From an uncultured Leptospirales bacterium (GTDB lineage Bacteria > Spirochaetota > UBA4802 > JAFGDQ01): a stretch of DNA of 64,000 bases. A program made the position numbers and the translations under genes. The notes under the pieces were generated by a model that saw only the letters and a program-made list of their open reading frames with translations, had not been told where the DNA came from and made no database searches. Shown piece after piece: positions 5,738 through 64,000 of the stretch. How positions within the stretch are numbered: position 1 is the stretch's first letter; each line of letters opens with the position of its first letter. The stretch spans positions 6,057 to 70,056 of the forward strand of contig CAZVDF010000005.1 in NCBI GenBank assembly GCA_964626055.1. Reading direction: 5' to 3'.

Positions 5738-5768
5738 AAAGACGCATCCCGATGCGTCTTTATTTTTG
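5738..5768 (+). terminator. Rho-independent terminator hairpin after the 5026-5670 gene
   Basis: aaagacgcatc-ccg-gatgcgtcttt stem followed by tattttt. Confidence 0.5.
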
Positions 5769-5811
5769 GCTTTTATCGAGATTTTGCTGATATGATACAA
5801 ATGAGGAAAAG

Positions 5812-11363: not shown

Positions 11364-12467
11364 ATGAAAAAAATATTTTTCGTATTAATTTTTTTTATTA
11401 TGACTGTCTGCTTCTGCGCTACTTCCGAAACCATACGATTATATAATAAGGAAATTTCATATTCATATTCAGATCCTGAAGCGGCTTTTCTTAACGACGT
11501 CATAAAAGGGAAGCTGATAATGGTTATGACTTTTGTGGAAGAAAAGCTTGTCGATATTAACTGCAGGGATTCTTCAGGTAAAACTGCCCTGATATACGCT
11601 TCGCAAAACGGGAATTTGAACATAATGGAATATCTGATTTCAAAAAATGCAGATTTAAACATACAGGACGGGAACGGAGTGACTGCCCTGATGTCTGCCG
11701 TCAAATTCAGAAAACCGGATGTCGTGCAGTATTTGCTTGGCAGGAATGCGGACGTAAAGCTTCTGGATTCGTATGGCTACACTGCGATGAAAATTGCAGT
11801 TGAAGGACAGCTGAATGATATTGTAAAAATATTGAGTTCGAATAGTGAATGCGTTGCCGCGCCTGACGGAGACGGGGAAACGCCTTTGATTTTTGCTGTA
11901 AAGAATAAATTTTACAATGCAGCTCTGATTCTGGCGGCAAGCGATGCGGGAATAAACGCCAGGGATAAAAACGGTCAAAACGCTCTCATACTGGCTGTAT
12001 ACAGGAAGTATTATGACATTGTTCAGCTTTTGCTGCAGAATAAATGCGAATTAAACGAACGGGACAATAACGGCCAGACCGCGCTCATGATTGCCGTATA
12101 TTATAAGTTTTATGATGGTGTTAAGCTCCTGCTGGAAAACAAGTGCGATGTAAAGATAAAGGACAATTCCGGCCAGACGGCACTTATTATTGCGGCATCG
12201 ATCAATAACTACGATGTTATACAGCAATTGCTGGATAACGGAAGCGAAATAGATGCTCAGGATAAAAGCGGGCAGACCGCTCTTATGAAAGCTGCGGATT
12301 ATAATTATTATTATATTGCGGAACTCCTGCTCCAGAACGGGGCCGATATAGATTTAGTTGACAATTTGAAGAAGACTGCGATAACAATAGCTGAGGAGAA
12401 CAGAAGGAAAGAGATTCTCGCTTTGTTGTCTGAACATAGAATAAACAAAATTAATAAAGACAGATAA
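11364..12467 (+). CDS. Ankyrin-repeat protein with signal peptide
   Basis: About nine tandem 33-aa repeats of the form G.TALM.A...G....V..LL..GAD.N. Confidence 0.8.
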   Translation: MKKIFFVLIFFIMTVCFCATSETIRLYNKEISYSYSDPEAAFLNDVIKGKLIMVMTFVEEKLVDINCRDSSGKTALIYASQNGNLNIMEYLISKNADLNIQDGNGVTALMSAVKFRKPDVVQYLLGRNADVKLLDSYGYTAMKIAVEGQLNDIVKILSSNSECVAAPDGDGETPLIFAVKNKFYNAALILAASDAGINARDKNGQNALILAVYRKYYDIVQLLLQNKCELNERDNNGQTALMIAVYYKFYDGVKLLLENKCDVKIKDNSGQTALIIAASINNYDVIQQLLDNGSEIDAQDKSGQTALMKAADYNYYYIAELLLQNGADIDLVDNLKKTAITIAEENRRKEILALLSEHRINKINKDR

Positions 12468-13740: not shown

Positions 13741-13767
13741 AGAGTATTTCTGTGGATAGTTTTTACC

Positions 13768-13824
13768 ATGATCTGGCTGGATAATATCTACTTCGACTCC
13801 ATAGATATTATCCAGCCAGATCAT
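13768..13824. terminator. Perfect 23-bp stem / 11-nt loop hairpin between convergent genes
   Basis: atgatctggctggataatatcta ... tagatattatccagccagatcat are exact reverse complements. The hairpin sits between the + hydrolase stop (13740) and the - oxidoreductase stop (13864). No U-tract follows. Confidence 0.45.
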
Positions 13825-13863
13825 CAGCAAAAATTTCCAGCATTTACTGTAATAGGTTTTTAA

Positions 13864-18354: not shown

Positions 18355-18480
18355 GATAAACCGAAATACATTACAAAATTTATTGCGGAATGCCTTCCAG
18401 GTCAGTTTTTTATTTTTCCGAAAGCTGTTGCAACAGGTCTGAAAGACGTCCTCATAAATTATGTAATATATTTCGGTTTA
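18355..18480. repeat. Palindromic MITE-like element, copy A (~125 bp), with imperfect terminal inverted repeats
   Basis: Termini aaaccgaaatacattacaaaattt / aaattatgtaatatatttcggttt. About 80% identical to copy B at 20360-20490. Confidence 0.55.
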
Positions 18481-20244: not shown

Positions 20245-20359
20245 CCGGGAATAATCTCAAAAATACTTTACTATAAATCCCGCAATAAGATAATATTGAA
20301 TTAATATATCTTATAATCAGAAGTCATCTCAGAATTATATTTTCACATAAATGATTAAT

Positions 20360-20490
20360 GATAAGTTGGAATACATTACAAAATTTTCTGCGGAATCAGA
20401 CCTTCCGGGTCAATCTTTTATGCTTTTGAACGCTATTGCATCAGGTCTGAAAGGCGTCCTCAAAAATTTTGTAATGTATTCCAACTTATC
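20360..20490. repeat. Palindromic MITE-like element, copy B (131 bp), with perfect 28-bp terminal inverted repeats
   Basis: gataagttggaatacattacaaaatttt (20360-20387) is the exact reverse complement of 20463-20490. The 64-aa ORF 20351-20545 inside it is very likely spurious. Confidence 0.6.
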
Positions 20491-20545
20491 AACAGATAGA
20501 TTACTATTTATAAACGACTTCTATTATTATTTTATCAATATTTAA

Positions 20546-27085: not shown

Positions 27086-27931
27086 ATGATATCTTCAATT
27101 TTATTCTATAAAGTTATACGGGACAGTCACGTGAGATTAGAAGTTGAGATTGGCTTTAAAAGTAAACCGCCTTTTTTAATTCCTGCTACTTATAGAAGGA
27201 ATATAGTAAGCCTCATAAGAGAATCCGTAAGATCGACGGATACAACCATGGATATTTACACCAAATATTGGGGCGAGGGCAATGCCCAAAGCATAAAACC
27301 GTACACATTTTTTTTGTCTATCCCGGGTGTAAATTATATAAATCTTAAACGAAAAAGATATATAGAAGCCCATGAAGATTCGGTAAAGCTGCATATTTCA
27401 TCGAGCGATTCTATTCTTCTTTCAATCTTTCATAAATGGCTTAACAATAATAAGCTGTTTAATTTATTTAATATTAATGTTGAAGTAGCGGGAATAAGTT
27501 TAAAAAACATTAAAACAATAAACTCGAGCTCCGTCACTTTTAAGATTTTATCCCCTGTGATTGTAAGGGATACGGAAATCGAAGGAAGAAAGAGGAAGGG
27601 AACCGGATACTTATCCTGCAATGACCACGATTTTGAAGATTCCCTGTCGCATTCGATTCTGAATCTTTGCAGGCGTTTTTTATATAATAAAAGGATAAGC
27701 AGAAACGATATCGAGATCGATGCTTCTCTCTGCGCGCACTCGGTAATTTACCATTACATGGAGACAATCCCGGTTACCATAGGCCTGATAAAAATTAAAG
27801 CGGATGAAGATGTACTTGAGCTGGTATATAATACCGGTCTTGGAGCCAGGCGCAGCCAGGGATTCGGCATGGTCGAACTGGTGTCTGAATCCGGATTTGC
27901 GCCGGTGCCGGCAATGAAGGAACTCGCCTAG
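27086..27931 (+). CDS. cas6: Cas6-family endoribonuclease homolog (solitary)
   Basis: The N-terminal ferredoxin-like domain has the Cas6 KPF/YTFS-type motif (IKPYTFFLSIP). The C-terminus has the diagnostic glycine-rich loop G-h-G-x5-G-h-G followed by hydrophobic residues (GLGARRSQGFGMVELV). Confidence 0.7.
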   Translation: MISSILFYKVIRDSHVRLEVEIGFKSKPPFLIPATYRRNIVSLIRESVRSTDTTMDIYTKYWGEGNAQSIKPYTFFLSIPGVNYINLKRKRYIEAHEDSVKLHISSSDSILLSIFHKWLNNNKLFNLFNINVEVAGISLKNIKTINSSSVTFKILSPVIVRDTEIEGRKRKGTGYLSCNDHDFEDSLSHSILNLCRRFLYNKRISRNDIEIDASLCAHSVIYHYMETIPVTIGLIKIKADEDVLELVYNTGLGARRSQGFGMVELVSESGFAPVPAMKELA

Positions 27932-31002: not shown

Positions 31003-31092
31003 GGAGATAATGATAGTATCCCTAATTTCCTGCGGAACTCGGCCTTTGGCCTCAGACAGTCCTCGGAAATTTGGGATACTATCATTATCTCC
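31003..31092. other. Perfect 20-bp inverted-repeat stem enclosing a conserved 42-nt core, copy 1 (candidate structured RNA or REP-like element)
   Basis: ggagataatgatagtatccc (31003-31022) is the exact reverse complement of 31073-31092. The core ttcctgcggaactcggcct-ttg-gcctcagacagtcctcggaa (31027-31068) recurs at 60041-60082. Confidence 0.5.
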
Positions 31093-44527: not shown

Positions 44528-46165
44528 ATGACAACTCATATCCGTACTCCGAATTTTTTTGAATATTGGGAAACGCTCGGTTTCTTCGATAATTTACAGA
44601 TGACGCTGCCGCGTGAGTTTTTTCTTCTTTTCGATATCGCCCGCCTGATAGCGTCGCAGGCTGAATCCTCGGAAGCCACCGATGCAATCGATGAATTATC
44701 AAAAACGCACGTCGTTGAACCTTATGATAAAACTAAGAGCATTGCGATAAACAGATTGGAAAAGAATGTCGCATTAGGCGATAAGATGGAAATTGAGAAT
44801 TATAAAACTATTTACGATCTGAAAAAAGCGCTTCCGCGAGAGCTTTTTCTGGAAAAGCAGGTATTCAATATCAAGCTCTTTACTAAAACACTCCAGGTGC
44901 AGAAACATTTCGATACGGATACCGATAAATTTATTCATATATCCCCGATAAAGAACGACAGGGGAAGGAATAAGACCAGATTCGATCAGAAATTTTTTCT
45001 ACTACTGGATAGATCCCGTTCAATGGACAACAGAATGAGATCTTTTTTTTCGAAAAGTATTGTTGTTGAATTTTTGCGAAGAAAACTGAACAGCAACGCC
45101 AAATTATTCTACAGGGCATTTGATTCAAAGCCTGGATCCTTAATGAAAATAGAGGACAAAGAAGATTTCCCGGCTCTGATAGAAAAAGTACTATTCACTA
45201 CGACCGGCGGAACAAGCACAAATATGCAGGCAGCGATATTCCAGGCTATTGACGATATAAGTTATGACAAGGAGATGGCGGATGCGGAAATCCTGGTTGT
45301 CACGGACGGGCTTGTGCACGATCTGGACATAGAAAGAATGAAGGAAGAATTGAAGGATATTAAACTAAATATTTTAAAGATCGGGCGTGATCTGGCAGAA
45401 CCGGATAATTATCAGATTAAGAAATTGTTAACTGATGCCGGATACGATTTCGATCCGTTCTCGGTAAGTATTAAGGAAATAAAGAAAAAACTTTCAAACG
45501 ACGGCGGTAGAGAAAATATCAAACCTCTGACCAATGTTGAACAGAGAATATTTAAATATATGCTGGAATGTTCTGAAAAGATCATCAGTGATATAAAAAA
45601 AATTTCATTCAGATTTATCGAGATTGACGATATTAATTCTTCTTCTCTTATTGAGCTGAGCGAAGAAACGGCTAAATTTATCGAAACAGCGGTAAAGGAA
45701 TTAAAAAATACCGATCTAAGCGATAAAACCATTCAGGAACGTTCGATAATTTACAAGAAGGTCTATTTCTTAAGCCAGTACATTGAATTCCTTTTGAAAT
45801 CCGGCAAAGATAAAAATAATCCTCTTCTTGAAAACTCGGCAAAAGAACTTTTTTTGATGAAAGAGGCAATGTTAAGCGATCCCAGCCTCTTCGATATTAT
45901 TATGAGAACAAAAGGATTTGAAGAAGATAAAAAAATATTAAAATCAGTAAAAAAAACGGCCAGGAAAAATCTCAAAGAAATGAATCTTAAAAAGAAAAAT
46001 TTAACCAGGGATGAGATTAAGAATGCGCAGATGGTTTTTTCCATGGGTTCTGTCGGAGATTCGGGTAATTTCGGGCAATTGATCCGTATTTTAATTATAA
46101 AATTATGGGAGTTCCTGAAGGCATCAATAAAAAAACTTCTCGATCATATCGGACATCATGATTAA
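44528..46165 (+). CDS. VWA-domain protein (ViaA-like partner of the MoxR ATPase)
   Basis: MIDAS DxSxS in FFLLLDRSRSMDN, a downstream T (TTTGGTST) and DG (VVTDGLVHD). Long Lys/Glu-rich C-terminal extension. Confidence 0.65.
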   Translation: MTTHIRTPNFFEYWETLGFFDNLQMTLPREFFLLFDIARLIASQAESSEATDAIDELSKTHVVEPYDKTKSIAINRLEKNVALGDKMEIENYKTIYDLKKALPRELFLEKQVFNIKLFTKTLQVQKHFDTDTDKFIHISPIKNDRGRNKTRFDQKFFLLLDRSRSMDNRMRSFFSKSIVVEFLRRKLNSNAKLFYRAFDSKPGSLMKIEDKEDFPALIEKVLFTTTGGTSTNMQAAIFQAIDDISYDKEMADAEILVVTDGLVHDLDIERMKEELKDIKLNILKIGRDLAEPDNYQIKKLLTDAGYDFDPFSVSIKEIKKKLSNDGGRENIKPLTNVEQRIFKYMLECSEKIISDIKKISFRFIEIDDINSSSLIELSEETAKFIETAVKELKNTDLSDKTIQERSIIYKKVYFLSQYIEFLLKSGKDKNNPLLENSAKELFLMKEAMLSDPSLFDIIMRTKGFEEDKKILKSVKKTARKNLKEMNLKKKNLTRDEIKNAQMVFSMGSVGDSGNFGQLIRILIIKLWEFLKASIKKLLDHIGHHD

Positions 46166-46225
46166 TTCGAATATTATTAACTTATCTGCTTCTTCGCAAT
46201 CAACTCATTATCCGATAAGCTTTAT

Positions 46226-46370
46226 TTCAAGGCGTAATACCTCGACGCTTGCGTCGAGGATGTAAGCCTATCGATTTGCGGAGCAAATCGATAACGCCTT
46301 GAAACATAATACCCCGCCGACACCGAAGGTGGCGGCCGGTACGTCAGTACCGGGGGCTTGCCCCGGGGAA
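46226..46370. other. GC-rich multi-hairpin intergenic element (candidate structured ncRNA)
   Basis: The outer 10-bp stem ttcaaggcgt/acgccttgaa (46226-46303) encloses hairpins cctcgacg-cttg-cgtcgagg and atcgatttgc-gga-gcaaatcgat. Further hairpins follow: ccggtac-gtca-gtaccgg and cggggg-cttg-ccccgg. The GC content is far above the local background. Confidence 0.35.
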
Positions 46371-46433
46371 TTTCATTGAAATAGTATTTAAAATTTAGTA
46401 TATTAAAAATAGCTAAAATAAAACATTATTTAA

Positions 46434-46877
46434 TTGATATTTTTAATGATAAAAAAATATATTTTCTTAATTATACTTCTACAGCTATTTTTAATAGAAT
46501 GTTCCGCACCTGTAACAACACAGAAAAAAGCCGACAAAGCCCCGGGTATTGTATACGGATGCGTAGAAGGCAATTGTACTGACGGCATCGGAACATTTAC
46601 ATGGGAGAACGGCAGCAGGTATGCGGGAGAGTTTAAAAATGGGAATATGCACGGGCAGGGGACGTTTTTCTTCGGCGGAAGCCGGATCGGAATAAAATAT
46701 ATCGGAGAATTTAAGAACGGATTTATTGACGGTATAGGCACCTGGACATGGCCGAATGGCGATAAATACGTTGGCGAGAGCAAATTTAACAATATGCATG
46801 GGAATGGAACTTATTATTTCAATGACGGCACAGTTAAAAAAGGGAAATGGTTTAATGATAAATATATTGAAGAATGA
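46434..46877 (+). CDS. MORN-repeat secreted protein
   Basis: Signal peptide, then about five MORN repeats (Y.GE.KNG..HG.GT...NG..Y.G.F). Confidence 0.7.
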   Translation: MIFLMIKKYIFLIILLQLFLIECSAPVTTQKKADKAPGIVYGCVEGNCTDGIGTFTWENGSRYAGEFKNGNMHGQGTFFFGGSRIGIKYIGEFKNGFIDGIGTWTWPNGDKYVGESKFNNMHGNGTYYFNDGTVKKGKWFNDKYIEE

Positions 46878-54731: not shown

Positions 54732-54915
54732 GGCCCCCTAAATCCCCTTAAAGGGGGACTTAAAAGATTAGTTTTGGTATATAATGGAAAATTGTTTTAG
54801 TATATCAGATTGGATTTATTTTAGTCACTTATCTCGAAATGTGAATGGTATTATCGACTCAAATTTGAGGTCAGGTTGCAAATAAAAGTCCCCCTTTAGG
54901 GGGATTTAGGGGGCC
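54732..54915. repeat. GC-rich inverted-repeat element 2 (30-bp IR arms, ~125-bp AT-rich interior)
   Basis: ggccccctaaatccccttaaagggggactt (54732-54761) versus aagtccccctttagggggatttagggggcc (54886-54915) has one mismatch as a reverse complement. It shares the ccccctaa / ttaggggg motif with element 1. Confidence 0.5.
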
Positions 54916-57464: not shown

Positions 57465-57610
57465 TGTGCATAAAGACTGACAAATTATATAAAGATTTAA
57501 ATGCAGATTATCACGAAATTATGTATTGAAAACGTGTCTTGAGAAATTTTAAGTATAAGGCACCCAATTGGAATTTTCGTTATTGCCTTTACAGACTTAG
57601 TATCCCAGAA
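57465..57610. repeat. Direct repeat DR2 (~146 bp), downstream copy
   Basis: See DR1. Together the two copies bracket only the 4Fe-4S gene. Confidence 0.65.
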
Positions 57611-57683
57611 TCTTTTCATATTTTCGAGAGTTATCGAATCAGTTCCGGAAGTCGTTCTTAAAAATTTTATAATGTATTTTAAT

Positions 57684-59093
57684 CTATAAATTATATTTTC
57701 TTCTTATATATCTTCCATAGTTTTTCGCATCTCTCCATTGCGGGCGCGTGCCCATGCGATTGACCAATGCCTGTATGATTCTCATGGACATCCGTCTCCA
57801 GTCTGCAGGAGTTGACCATTCCGGACGTCGGCGGGCTACGGAATCCAGCACAGCAAGAGGATTTTTTCCGAGAGCCGGGGAAACATAATAGCGCGGCAGA
57901 AAAAGGTCTGCGTTGCCGGGTATCATTTTTTCTCTGATAGCGATTTTTTCGATCTCAGTATCCGGGTAGATGCGAAGTCCGAGCGATGCGAATACTGCAT
58001 TAGGTGTCTTACATGAGTCCAGAAATCGCTGTACTTCATCTATGTCGCCGGCATTCTCTTCGGGCCCTCCGAAAAGCATTTGTACGACAGCCGGCAGCTT
58101 CGCATTATGTACTGCATTTAAAGATTTGCGGATGTCAGCCTGATCGAATGGTTTTTTCATTACATTAAGCATTTTATCCGTGGCAGCGTCGACGCTCATC
58201 TCTATTCCTATACATCCGGATGCTTTCATAGCTTTCGCCAGCTCATCATCAAATCCTGCCGGATTGCAGTAAGCCATCCATGACACGGAAGAGCCCCGGC
58301 GGATCAGCTCACGGCAGATTTCAAGAGCGTGCTCGGGCGAACTGTTGAAGACATTATCTGTTATGAAAACATAACAGCCTTTGTTATTACTTGAAACATA
58401 TTCGAACTCATCTGCGATAAGGCCGGGATCGCGCAGACGCAGCCTGTGTCCTTCGAGATTCGGATAATTGCAGTAAATGCACTTGAACGGGCATCCGCGC
58501 TTGGTTTGAATGCCTATAAATCCTCCATGTGAAAGATATTTCGTGTATCTGCATAAATGGTGAGCGGGCCGGTGAAGATCATTGACTTCCGGTCGGTCGG
58601 CGGGCGATCCGTAATTACTACGGTAATTAGCCGGTGTTATGATCCCGGCTATGCCGTTCGCCCGTCTGTTTTCTGATATACATTTGAGCAATGAAACAAA
58701 GGCTTTTTCGCCTTCTCCGATCACGCCATAGTCAGGCTTCAAGCGCTCCATCCATCCGGCCGGGGAAATGGAAAAACCGCTTCCGCCGAGTATAAGAGGC
58801 GCATTGGTTAAACGTCGTATATCATCAAAGATTTCTTTTACTCCGTCTAAATATAATTCCTGGAACGCCCATGAACAGCTGTCGAGATTCCGGATTCCTA
58901 TGCCGATTGCAATATAATCACAGGATTTCAGAGCTTTTTTCAGTGCTCTTGCCGGAGACCGGACAAAGGACATATCGATAATATCCGCTTCGTAGCCTGC
59001 CTTTTCAGCAGCCGCAGCCACATATAGCACTCCGAGAGGAGCAACCGGGAAAGGCGACCTGTTCCTGTTCGATGCAACAAGCAGAATCCTCAC
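57684..59093 (-). CDS. B12-binding-domain radical SAM protein
   Basis: N-terminal cobalamin-binding Rossmann region (MRILLVASNRNRSPFPVAPLGVLYVAAAAEKAGYEADIID) and radical SAM CPFKCIYCNYP. Confidence 0.8.
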   Translation of the reverse strand: MRILLVASNRNRSPFPVAPLGVLYVAAAAEKAGYEADIIDMSFVRSPARALKKALKSCDYIAIGIGIRNLDSCSWAFQELYLDGVKEIFDDIRRLTNAPLILGGSGFSISPAGWMERLKPDYGVIGEGEKAFVSLLKCISENRRANGIAGIITPANYRSNYGSPADRPEVNDLHRPAHHLCRYTKYLSHGGFIGIQTKRGCPFKCIYCNYPNLEGHRLRLRDPGLIADEFEYVSSNNKGCYVFITDNVFNSSPEHALEICRELIRRGSSVSWMAYCNPAGFDDELAKAMKASGCIGIEMSVDAATDKMLNVMKKPFDQADIRKSLNAVHNAKLPAVVQMLFGGPEENAGDIDEVQRFLDSCKTPNAVFASLGLRIYPDTEIEKIAIREKMIPGNADLFLPRYYVSPALGKNPLAVLDSVARRRPEWSTPADWRRMSMRIIQALVNRMGTRPQWRDAKNYGRYIRRKYNL

Positions 59094-60015: not shown

Positions 60016-60095
60016 GGGATATATCATAAATCAATTTAAATTCCTGCGGAACTCGGCCTAGAGCCTCAGACAGTCCTCGGAACTATGATATGTCC
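60016..60095. other. Conserved 42-nt core, copy 2, inside an imperfect inverted repeat
   Basis: The core ttcctgcggaactcggcct-aga-gcctcagacagtcctcggaa (60041-60082) matches copy 1 in 39 of 42 positions, the three differences being the central trinucleotide. It is flanked by gggatatatcata / tatgatatgtcc. Confidence 0.45.
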
Positions 60096-62073: not shown

Positions 62074-62364
62074 ATGATAGAGATCAGACAAACAGAAACA
62101 TATAAGAAATGGTTCTCTTCCTTAAGAGACAGAAATGCAAAAATTCGGATTGATATTAGAATTAGAAGACTTTCTCTGGGTAATTATGGAAACGCAAAGC
62201 CTGTAGGAGCTGGAATATCGGAATTAAGAATTAATTACGGCCCGGGTTATAGAATATATTATATAAGAACGGATAATGAAATAATAATTCTGCTGGCAGG
62301 CGGCGATAAATCGACCCAATCAAGGGATATAAAGAAAGCGAAAGAGATTAGAGGTGTGATATGA
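62074..62364 (+). CDS. Type II toxin, RelE/ParE superfamily (HigB-like, COG3657 addiction-module killer)
   Basis: 96 aa. Pattern FSSLRDRNAKIRIDIRIRRLSLGNYGNAKPVGAGISELRINYGPGYRIYY. It overlaps the downstream gene by 4 nt. Confidence 0.7.
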   Translation: MIEIRQTETYKKWFSSLRDRNAKIRIDIRIRRLSLGNYGNAKPVGAGISELRINYGPGYRIYYIRTDNEIIILLAGGDKSTQSRDIKKAKEIRGVI

Positions 62365-62666
62365 AAAAAGAAAAAATAAGCATATGGGATGCTGCAGAGC
62401 ACCTTGAAACTGAAAAAGATATGGCCGCATATTTAGAAGCAGCATTGGAAGAAAATGACCCTTCACTAATTGCAGCTGCGTTGGGTGACATCGCGAGGGC
62501 TAAAGGAATGTCACGAATATCGAAGCGGACAGGACTTGGCAGGGAAAGCCTGTACAAAGCATTATCACCGGAGGGAAATCCTGAATTTTCTACAATACTA
62601 AAAGTTGTCAATGCTTTGGGATTAAAATTTCAGGCTGTTCCTGGAAAAATTAAATCTGCGGTTTAA
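62361..62666 (+). CDS. Cognate antitoxin (HigA-like / COG3636 addiction-module antidote, HTH)
   Basis: 101 aa. WDAAEHLETEKDMAAYLEAALEE...IAAALGDIARAKGMSRISKRTGLGRESLYKAL is the HTH core of this antidote family. Confidence 0.7.
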   Translation: MKKEKISIWDAAEHLETEKDMAAYLEAALEENDPSLIAAALGDIARAKGMSRISKRTGLGRESLYKALSPEGNPEFSTILKVVNALGLKFQAVPGKIKSAV

Positions 62667-63742: not shown

Positions 63743-64000
63743 AAGCCATTTTAAAATTTTTTTTTGCTGATCAATCGGGATATATCATAAAATTTTTGAG
63801 GAGCCTTTCAGACCTGATGGAAATGCGCTCGAAAACATCAAAGACTGGCCAGGAAGATCTGATTCCGCAGAAAATTTTTGATATATCCCGATTGATCGAT
63901 AAACATTAAAATGTATCAAAAATTTGGAGATGGCTTTTAGTAACCATTTAAAAGGTTTTTAGCTACATTCTTAATTTTTAATTTCAAAGATAATATCAGA

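Follow-up and report, generated by a model that had tools for sequence, protein, structure and literature searches.

A GC-rich multi-hairpin element between a VWA-type and a MORN-repeat gene of an uncultured spirochaete: very probably a mobile, non-autonomous repeat and perhaps a derivative of the IS200/IS605 type

What is the GC-rich, multi-hairpin stretch that lies in the spacer between a VWA-type gene and a MORN-repeat gene of an uncultured spirochaete? The window, i.e. the whole stretch of 64,000 nt that was analysed, is housekeeping DNA of a MAG assigned to an uncultured member of the Spirochaetota. The stretch is situated between the stop codon of the VWA-type gene (44528-46165), which itself lies downstream of a bpMoxR AAA+ gene, and the ATG of the MORN-repeat gene at position 46447. 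The gene order ComFB, PAS kinase, bpMoxR, VWA, MORN and, on the opposite strand, acs is kept in relatives. A preliminary description of this DNA had reported a three-way junction followed by further GC-rich hairpins at 46226-46370 and had offered three options, namely that the stretch acts as riboswitch or leader for MORN, that it encodes a small RNA or that it is of the REP type. On re-reading, the letters of 46226-46370 agreed with this description, and the three-way junction as well as the additional hairpins were found both in the sequence and in the computed folds.

The region 46215-46385 folds as RNA with a minimum free energy of -77.4 kcal/mol, compared to -49.3 +/- 4.1 kcal/mol for dinucleotide shuffles (z = -6.9). 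As RNA, the minus strand folds as strongly as the plus strand (z = -7.7), and with parameters for single-stranded DNA a z-score of -7.3 was obtained. In a GC-corrected sliding scan with 100-nt segments the element was among the three most over-structured spots of the window. The multi-hairpin fold is real. The parts of the element and its immediate surroundings are the following; L010 and L015 designate the other two full copies, which are described below.

46221-46225, plus strand: TTTAT, which precedes all three full copies and is presumed to be either the target-adjacent motif (TAM) or the left one of two 5-bp direct repeats.
46226-46376, plus strand: the whole repeated unit of 151 nt, beyond which the similarity among the copies ends; the plus strand is the presumed active 'top' strand.
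46226-46303, plus strand: domain A, a three-way junction in the RNA and single-stranded DNA folds.
46226-46235 and 46294-46303, plus strand: closing helix of domain A, in which TTCAAGGCGT pairs with ACGCCTTGAA over 10 bp according to the folds.
46236-46239, plus strand: AATA, candidate left-end DNA guide, just 5' of the foot of hairpin 1.
46240-46259, plus strand: hairpin 1, CCTCGACGC-TT-GCGTCGAGG, candidate left-end subterminal palindrome.
46270-46292, plus strand: hairpin 2, ATCGATTTGC-GGA-GCAAATCGAT, whose stem is the best-conserved part of the family.
46308-46311, plus strand: AATA, candidate right-end DNA guide, just 5' of the foot of domain B.
46312-46368, plus strand: domain B, candidate right-end structure, in which a CCCC/GGGG stem encloses three short GC hairpins.
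46316-46336, 46337-46352 and 46353-46364, plus strand: the hairpins of domain B, the first of them imperfect because of an A.G mismatch, from the folds and pair counts.
46372-46376, plus strand: TTCAT, presumed transposon-encoded cleavage motif (TEM) or right copy of the direct repeat with one mutation; TTTAT in L010 and L015.
46376-46404, plus strand: TTGAAA-17-TATATT in front of the MORN gene, a consensus match to a sigma-70-like promoter that does not belong to the element.

The closing helix of domain A is extended to 11 bp by an additional T-A pair (46225/46304). Directly beside the feet of the structures a short sequence recurs: the heptamer TAATACC is present twice in the element, at 46235-46241, where it abuts the foot of hairpin 1, and at 46307-46313, where it abuts the foot of domain B. 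The whole window contains this heptamer only 12 times on both strands. Comparison of the two ends of the element gave no terminal inverted repeats; once reverse-complemented, the right end matches the left end, TTCAAGGCG, at few bases, and only TTC is common to both.

If the element is a repeat, further copies should share its ends. We scanned 185,579 species-representative genomes for a hairpin 2 pattern with exact stems and a free loop. Three related loci were found, all of them solitary and all in one MAG, 'Spirochaetes bacterium Zod_Metabat.878'; since the pattern required exact stems, this number is a lower bound for that genome. Two of the loci are full copies in intergenic positions, L010 (2371-2527) between a dapB-like and an acyltransferase-like gene and L015 (3402-3558) between ispG and asd. 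The third, L006, is a shorter, degenerate variant between convergent genes which retains hairpin 2 and its flanks. Consequently, the family is known from three full copies and one degenerate variant. In the window and in L015 the top strand runs in the sense of the flanking genes, and in L010 it is antisense to them. The three full copies have common junctions, TTTAT|TTCAAGG...GGGGAAT-TT(T/C)AT|, beyond which the flanks are unrelated. From this comparison the right limit of the repeat is position 46376 (...GGGGAAT TTCAT), slightly beyond the 46370 given before.

The copies also show which parts of the structure are retained. The closing helix of domain A is invariant in all three full copies, and the stems of hairpin 2 are identical in these and in the short L006 variant, while its loop reads GGA, GAA or TTC. 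Hairpin 1 is free of mismatches in the window copy and carries an A.G mismatch in both L010 and L015. Altogether the window copy has the most perfect fold (-77 kcal/mol versus -61 and -63 kcal/mol for the other two full copies), as would be expected of a young copy compared with decaying older ones. L010 and L015 are identical to the window copy at 139 and 141 of 151 positions, respectively, and to each other at 141 of 151 positions. The copies are thus 92-93% identical whether they are compared between genomes or within one. In contrast, coding DNA of the window and of the Zod_Metabat.878 genome is only 76% identical, and the spacers are unalignable. Being more alike than their hosts, the copies must be far younger than the split of the two lineages, and the family has either been recently active in both lineages or been exchanged between them.

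Beyond this genome, 15 other matches to hairpin 2 (in Lachnospiraceae, Saccharibacteria and others) share that hairpin alone and were set aside as unrelated. Some of the matching Lachnospiraceae MAGs contain tandem arrays with a period of about 116-120 nt (L009 200-470, L013 920-1080, L019 2710-2860, and L018). These arrays adjoin gene starts or ends and consist of several different short hairpins, nearly all with a TGC-GRA-GCA apex; one array hairpin is identical to the spirochaete hairpin 2, and nothing else is in common. Within the 64-kb window no further copy was detected by exact patterns, patterns with three mismatches, a repeat finder, blastn-short or nhmmer. Scans of metagenome and viral collections and blastn searches of the PLSDB plasmids (n = 72,556) and of phages gave no match either. 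In a third genome, a sequence directly after a radical-SAM gene (L022 19507-19533, AGGCTTGCCCCCGGGAATTTTATT) is similar to the final 27 nt of the element (nhmmer E = 0.01) and could be what is left of a solo right end; L023 has no such sequence at the orthologous position.

Orthologous spacers of relatives were then compared with the occupied sites. In L001 and L002, whose VWA proteins are 78% and 69% identical to that of the window, the VWA-MORN spacer is AT-rich and shows no trace of the element. L002 comes from the Zod_Metabat.878 assembly, i.e. from the very genome that carries the other copies. According to the gene tables, this spacer measures 281 nt in the window and 130-144 nt in two further relatives, and the difference approximately equals the size of the element. 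In L021 (VWA 81% identical) a canonical terminator directly follows the VWA gene, and neither MORN nor the element is found there. This is a bidirectional intrinsic terminator at 11634-11680 (AAAAAAAGCGGAACTT...AAGTCCCGCTTTTTT), placed right after a VWA gene that is split by a frameshift; with its succession of A-tract, hairpin and T-tract it demonstrates that the lineage uses canonical terminators.

The site of the L015 copy gave the same picture. In L022 and L023 the ispG-asd spacer is empty and measures only 95 and 113 nt, respectively, and both flanks can be aligned. The two empty-site comparisons yielded GCTTTAT in L001 and, for the site of the L015 copy, TATTAT in L023, indicating that the left pentanucleotide belongs to the target. 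A relative from a JGI sample has an ispG-asd spacer of 353 nt, which may hold another copy. Upstream of asd a conserved block, TTGCAAAA(N17-18)TTTTTTTAAGGTATGT, is present in three genomes (L015 3559-3640 on the reverse strand, L022 9925-9965 and L023 9910-9955). The L015 element is located between this block and the start codon of asd and may accordingly lie in the asd 5' untranslated region; a simple promoter scan called no promoter at the block in L015.

The copies have precise common boundaries, are scattered over unrelated loci and resemble each other much more than their host genomes do, and orthologous sites are occupied in one genome and empty in another. On these findings we regard the element as very probably a mobile, non-autonomous repeat. 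It is an ordinary genomic parasite that carries no gene. The family is new and previously undescribed and resides in uncultured Spirochaetota; the kind of small mobile repeat to which it belongs is already known.

How could such an element move? Elements of the IS200/IS605 family lack terminal inverted repeats, do not duplicate their target and insert 3' of a short specific motif; their right end is formed by a related motif, and each cut site is identified by base pairing with a guide of four nucleotides, which is situated 5' of a subterminal hairpin at its foot (PMC3201880, PMC3597680). Geobacillus elements of this family, the ISGst elements, have gene-less relatives termed PATEs. Their TAM and TEM pentanucleotides are TTTAT, TTCAT and TTCAC; the TAM of ISGst2 is TTTAT and that of ISGst5 is TTCAT, and the TEM differs at 1-2 positions (bioRxiv 10.1101/2023.03.14.532601). 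The ends, the candidate guides and the TTTAT motif of our element fit this 'peel and paste' family, and it can be read as a PATE whose top strand is the plus strand of the window. That it is a non-autonomous IS200/IS605-type derivative which moves by that mechanism is the most likely of the explanations considered, with chances that we put at about even.

On this reading, the 151-bp gene-less element would have entered the AT-rich DNA that separates the bpMoxR-VWA pair from the MORN gene. A Y1 (HUH) TnpA encoded elsewhere would bind the hairpins of the single-stranded top strand, here the plus strand, and would cut after the left flanking TTTAT and after the right terminal TT(T/C)AT, with the nearby AATA, next to a stem foot on its 5' side, pairing with each cut site and so setting its position. 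Excision would yield a single-stranded circle, which would then be inserted 3' of another TTTAT. Effects on adjacent genes, if there are any, would be a by-product.

The proposed guides were compared with those of IS608, which is cut at TTAC on the left and at TCAA on the right, with 19 and 10 nt, respectively, between cut site and hairpin (PMC3201880). From the contacts in IS608 a pairing rule was derived (c-1:g4, c-3:g1 and c-4:g2, together with a contact between T(-4) and A(-2); PMC3201880), which holds for both ends of IS608; it stems from this one element only, which has tetranucleotide sites. Applied to TTAT, the rule predicts the guide AA.A. AATA is present at both ends and fits at three of three positions; the right motif of the window copy, TCAT, fits the AATA guide at two of three positions. 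The T at -4 and the A at -2, which are in contact in IS608, are both present in the cut-site motif of the element. The distance from the cut site to the structure is 14 nt on the left (hairpin 1) and 8 nt on the right (domain B).

By its anatomy the element comes closest to the PATEs related to ISGst1 and ISGst5 of Geobacillus stearothermophilus, for which IS608 serves as the mechanistic model. Like these, it is short, contains no coding gene, lacks terminal inverted repeats and has subterminal hairpins at both ends. A pentanucleotide identical to the TAM of ISGst2 precedes its left end, and a near-identical one terminates its right end. The short motif 5' of each stem foot conforms to the guide rule of IS608, and the element is present or absent at orthologous sites. 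Unlike the PATEs, it has no known cognate TnpA or full-length parent, its right end is a three-hairpin domain instead of a single imperfect palindrome, and it possesses an additional central hairpin as well as a 10-11-bp helix that closes its left two-thirds.

From these similarities we infer which type of transposase acts, what the guide and cleavage motifs do and that movement proceeds through single strands; several observations speak against this. A tblastn search with the TnpA sequences of IS200 and IS608 detected no tnpA in the window and the 24 loci, 269 kb in total, and Pfam scans of 57 ORFs of the window gave no transposase or recombinase domain. The right end reads TTTAT in two copies and TTCAT in the window, so that a target duplication of 5 bp, TTTAT, would explain the junctions just as well. 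The presumed end structures are dissimilar, a simple hairpin on the left and a three-hairpin domain on the right, which is atypical for IS200/IS605. Furthermore, conservation is highest in the central hairpin 2 and in the long closing helix, neither of which is required by the IS200/IS605 model. For this family the top strand is expected to lie preferentially on the lagging-strand template; here it lies on the G-rich strand in two of the three copies (the window and L015, not L010), and this bias is confounded with gene orientation.

Other explanations of the same structure have to be weighed against this. That the element is a functional structured RNA, be it a riboswitch or leader of MORN, a small RNA or a structure that has evolved to stabilise or terminate the VWA operon at its 3' end, appears very improbable, even though its fold is very stable and two loops of the plus strand read G(CUUG)C. 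At the gathering thresholds of Rfam 15 the whole window gave no match, and at the locus only weak, AT-rich chance matches appeared with E-values up to 10. A role as leader of MORN, as proposed in the preliminary description, is not borne out: the spacers of L001 and L002 lack the element, and the sole sigma-70-like match for the MORN gene lies downstream of it. The small RNA is not supported either. Against any such RNA function also speak the Rfam result, the equally strong folding of both strands and the location of the copies, whose neighbouring genes are unrelated and to which they are oriented either way, one of them being antisense. The statement that the stretch has neither a U-tract nor tRNA features was confirmed, as the terminator scan detected no plus-strand U-tract terminator in the element and no tRNA or tmRNA gene was found in the window; the relative L021, in contrast, has its canonical terminator at the equivalent place. 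Since no terminator separates it from VWA, the VWA message probably includes the element as a very stable structure at its 3' end, where it may stabilise or attenuate this message as a REP-like side-effect. L015 has one compensatory change from C-G to U-A and two changes to G-U, but most substitutions break pairs (8 of 165 pair cells over the three copies), and covariation, uninformative with three copies, is not above that of shuffles, 149 of 500 scoring as high. The conservation of structure upstream of MORN orthologues that had been suggested as a check was not found in L001 and L002.

The REP-type element, which the preliminary description had also named as a refuting outcome (many copies, like a REP sequence), is the nearest of its three options: the element is a dispersed repeat which is present or absent at orthologous sites. 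Its length of 151 nt exceeds that of a REP, however, and an unpaired GTAG or CGTC tag is missing, so that it is not a REP in the strict sense. REPs often lie 3' of genes and can stabilise the 3' ends of mRNAs. A cluster of REP/BIME-type palindromes spread by a domesticated RAYT, with host roles such as protection of mRNA 3' ends, would account for GC-rich palindromes in an intergenic spacer downstream of a gene and for dispersed copies in a related genome, and REPs are likewise thought to be mobilised by HUH enzymes (PMC3733652). We nevertheless judge it very unlikely. REPs measure 20-40 nt, carry the unpaired tag and number in the hundreds, arranged as dimers or arrays (PMC3733652), whereas here one fixed 151-nt composite with precise ends was found instead of 20-40-nt units in variable head-to-head or tail-to-tail arrays. 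No tag is present at the hairpin ends (the bases beside the hairpin feet are TAATA and ATGTAAG, and CGTC occurs only within a stem and a loop), the 64-kb window holds a single copy, and no RAYT was found in the window and the loci (269 kb). A further alternative, possible but on the unlikely side, is a miniature element similar to bcr1 of Bacillus cereus that is moved by another route, by a site-specific recombinase or a transposase which duplicates TTTAT. The TTTAT pair would then be a true 5-bp repeat, and the hairpins would serve folding or stability and not recognition by an HUH enzyme. TTTAT on both sides of L010 and L015, and TTTAT together with TTCAT in the window, agree with this alternative, as does the failure to find a TnpA here; moreover bcr1, with a length of about 155 bp, is an example of a family whose mobilisation is unexplained (PMC3184786, PMC6542083, PMC6199540). 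On the other hand, the terminal inverted repeats expected for a DDE enzyme are absent, the window is without a recombinase or transposase, and the AATA that is repeated beside the two stem feet is left unexplained. In addition, bcr1 itself may be an IS605-type PATE, in which case the two explanations may not be distinct.

By description, bcr1 is the closest of the known families. [quoted passage not shown] Size, TTTAT flanks, intergenic location, variable presence and a fold stability that differs among copies are the same in our element, and the two stem-loops resemble domain A. The differences are that our element is found in Spirochaetota and has a second, GC-rich domain with three hairpins. 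The bcr1 family has been described as confined to the B. cereus group of the Firmicutes, and some plasmids are reported to carry it (PMC6542083). Our element had no blastn match among the 72,556 PLSDB plasmids and was compared with bcr1 by description; sequence comparison with described elements comprised the plasmid and phage searches, both negative. A more daring proposal, to which we give a small probability, is that the element and bcr1 form one cross-phylum class of gene-less, TTTAT-targeting hairpin elements which are moved in trans by an IS605-type TnpA. The GC-rich right-hand domain would further perhaps be a retained guide-RNA scaffold that borrows TnpB in trans for homing, or a co-opted stabiliser of the RNA 3' end of the bpMoxR-VWA operon.

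Two further groups of repeats share features with the element. MITEs are defined by terminal inverted repeats that match a DDE insertion sequence and by target duplications. The classical MITEs (Correia/NEMIS, RUP, ERIC) and our element are alike in being intergenic, non-autonomous, 100-200 bp long and strongly folded as RNA or DNA. Unlike MITEs, the element has only TTC in common between its ends, and a classical MITE was rejected because of the missing terminal inverted repeats. In the comparison for target duplications, TTTAT on both sides consisted of the same letters in every copy, with TTCAT on the right in the window. With the REP, BIME and REPIN sequences and their RAYT transposases it has in common GC-rich extragenic palindromes on which an HUH enzyme probably acts while they form single-stranded hairpins; it differs from REPs as a single composite of low density that lacks the tag. 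Integron attC sites, group II intron domains and retron ncRNAs were considered and dropped as no defining motif or neighbouring gene was seen.

For annotation, a false lead is removed: 46226-46376 is neither a riboswitch nor a small-RNA gene. Elements of this kind inflate predictions of structured RNAs in AT-rich genomes, and masking them is advisable. Their insertions adjoin host genes, the window copy being probably co-transcribed with the MoxR-VWA operon and the L015 copy lying just upstream of asd. If the IS605-type reading is true, the pair of AATA guide and TTTAT target is a directly testable prediction. The parallel with bcr1 suggests a mechanism for that family as well, and a common cross-phylum class, if it exists, would settle how bcr1 moves.

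Several other repeats were noticed in the window. A separate family is represented at 18357-18480, 20359-20491 and 63769-63897 and by a partial copy at 57599-57708. It has near-perfect inverted arms of 27-34 nt (e.g. TGATAAGTTGGAATACATTACAAAATTTT) and a core that starts with CTGCGGAA and ends with GTCCTC; with its inverted-repeat ends it is MITE-like, and it has no TTTAT flanks. A fragment of such an arm is present in the VWA-MORN spacer of L002 at about 5755-5790. At 31003-31092 and 60037-60087 a 51-nt core (TTCCTGCGGAACTCGGCC...CCTCAGACAGTCCTCGGAA) is repeated with 88% identity, just upstream of a MotA/ExbB-like and an ABC-F gene. At 31003-31092 this core is enclosed by inverted arms of 28 nt and folds at -51 kcal/mol in 100 nt; it bears the same CTGCGGAA...GTCCTC signature as the family at 18357-18480. 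Between two menaquinone (futalosine-pathway) genes, at 54732-54915, GC-rich inverted arms of 30 nt (GGCCCCCTAAATCCCCTTAAAGGGGGACTT) are 97% complementary and 124 nt apart. An inverted repeat with 38-nt arms (84% complementary, 11-nt loop) is situated between convergent genes at 13753-13839 and likewise belongs to the three most structured spots of the window.

Among the genes of the window, a lone Cas6-like gene was identified at 27086-27931 (PF01881, E = 4e-22); the window contains no CRISPR-like array, and no other cas gene was among the ORFs scanned. A toxin-antitoxin-like pair, a Gp49/HigB-like gene followed by a gene for an antidote of the HI1420 type, is located at 62074-62666.
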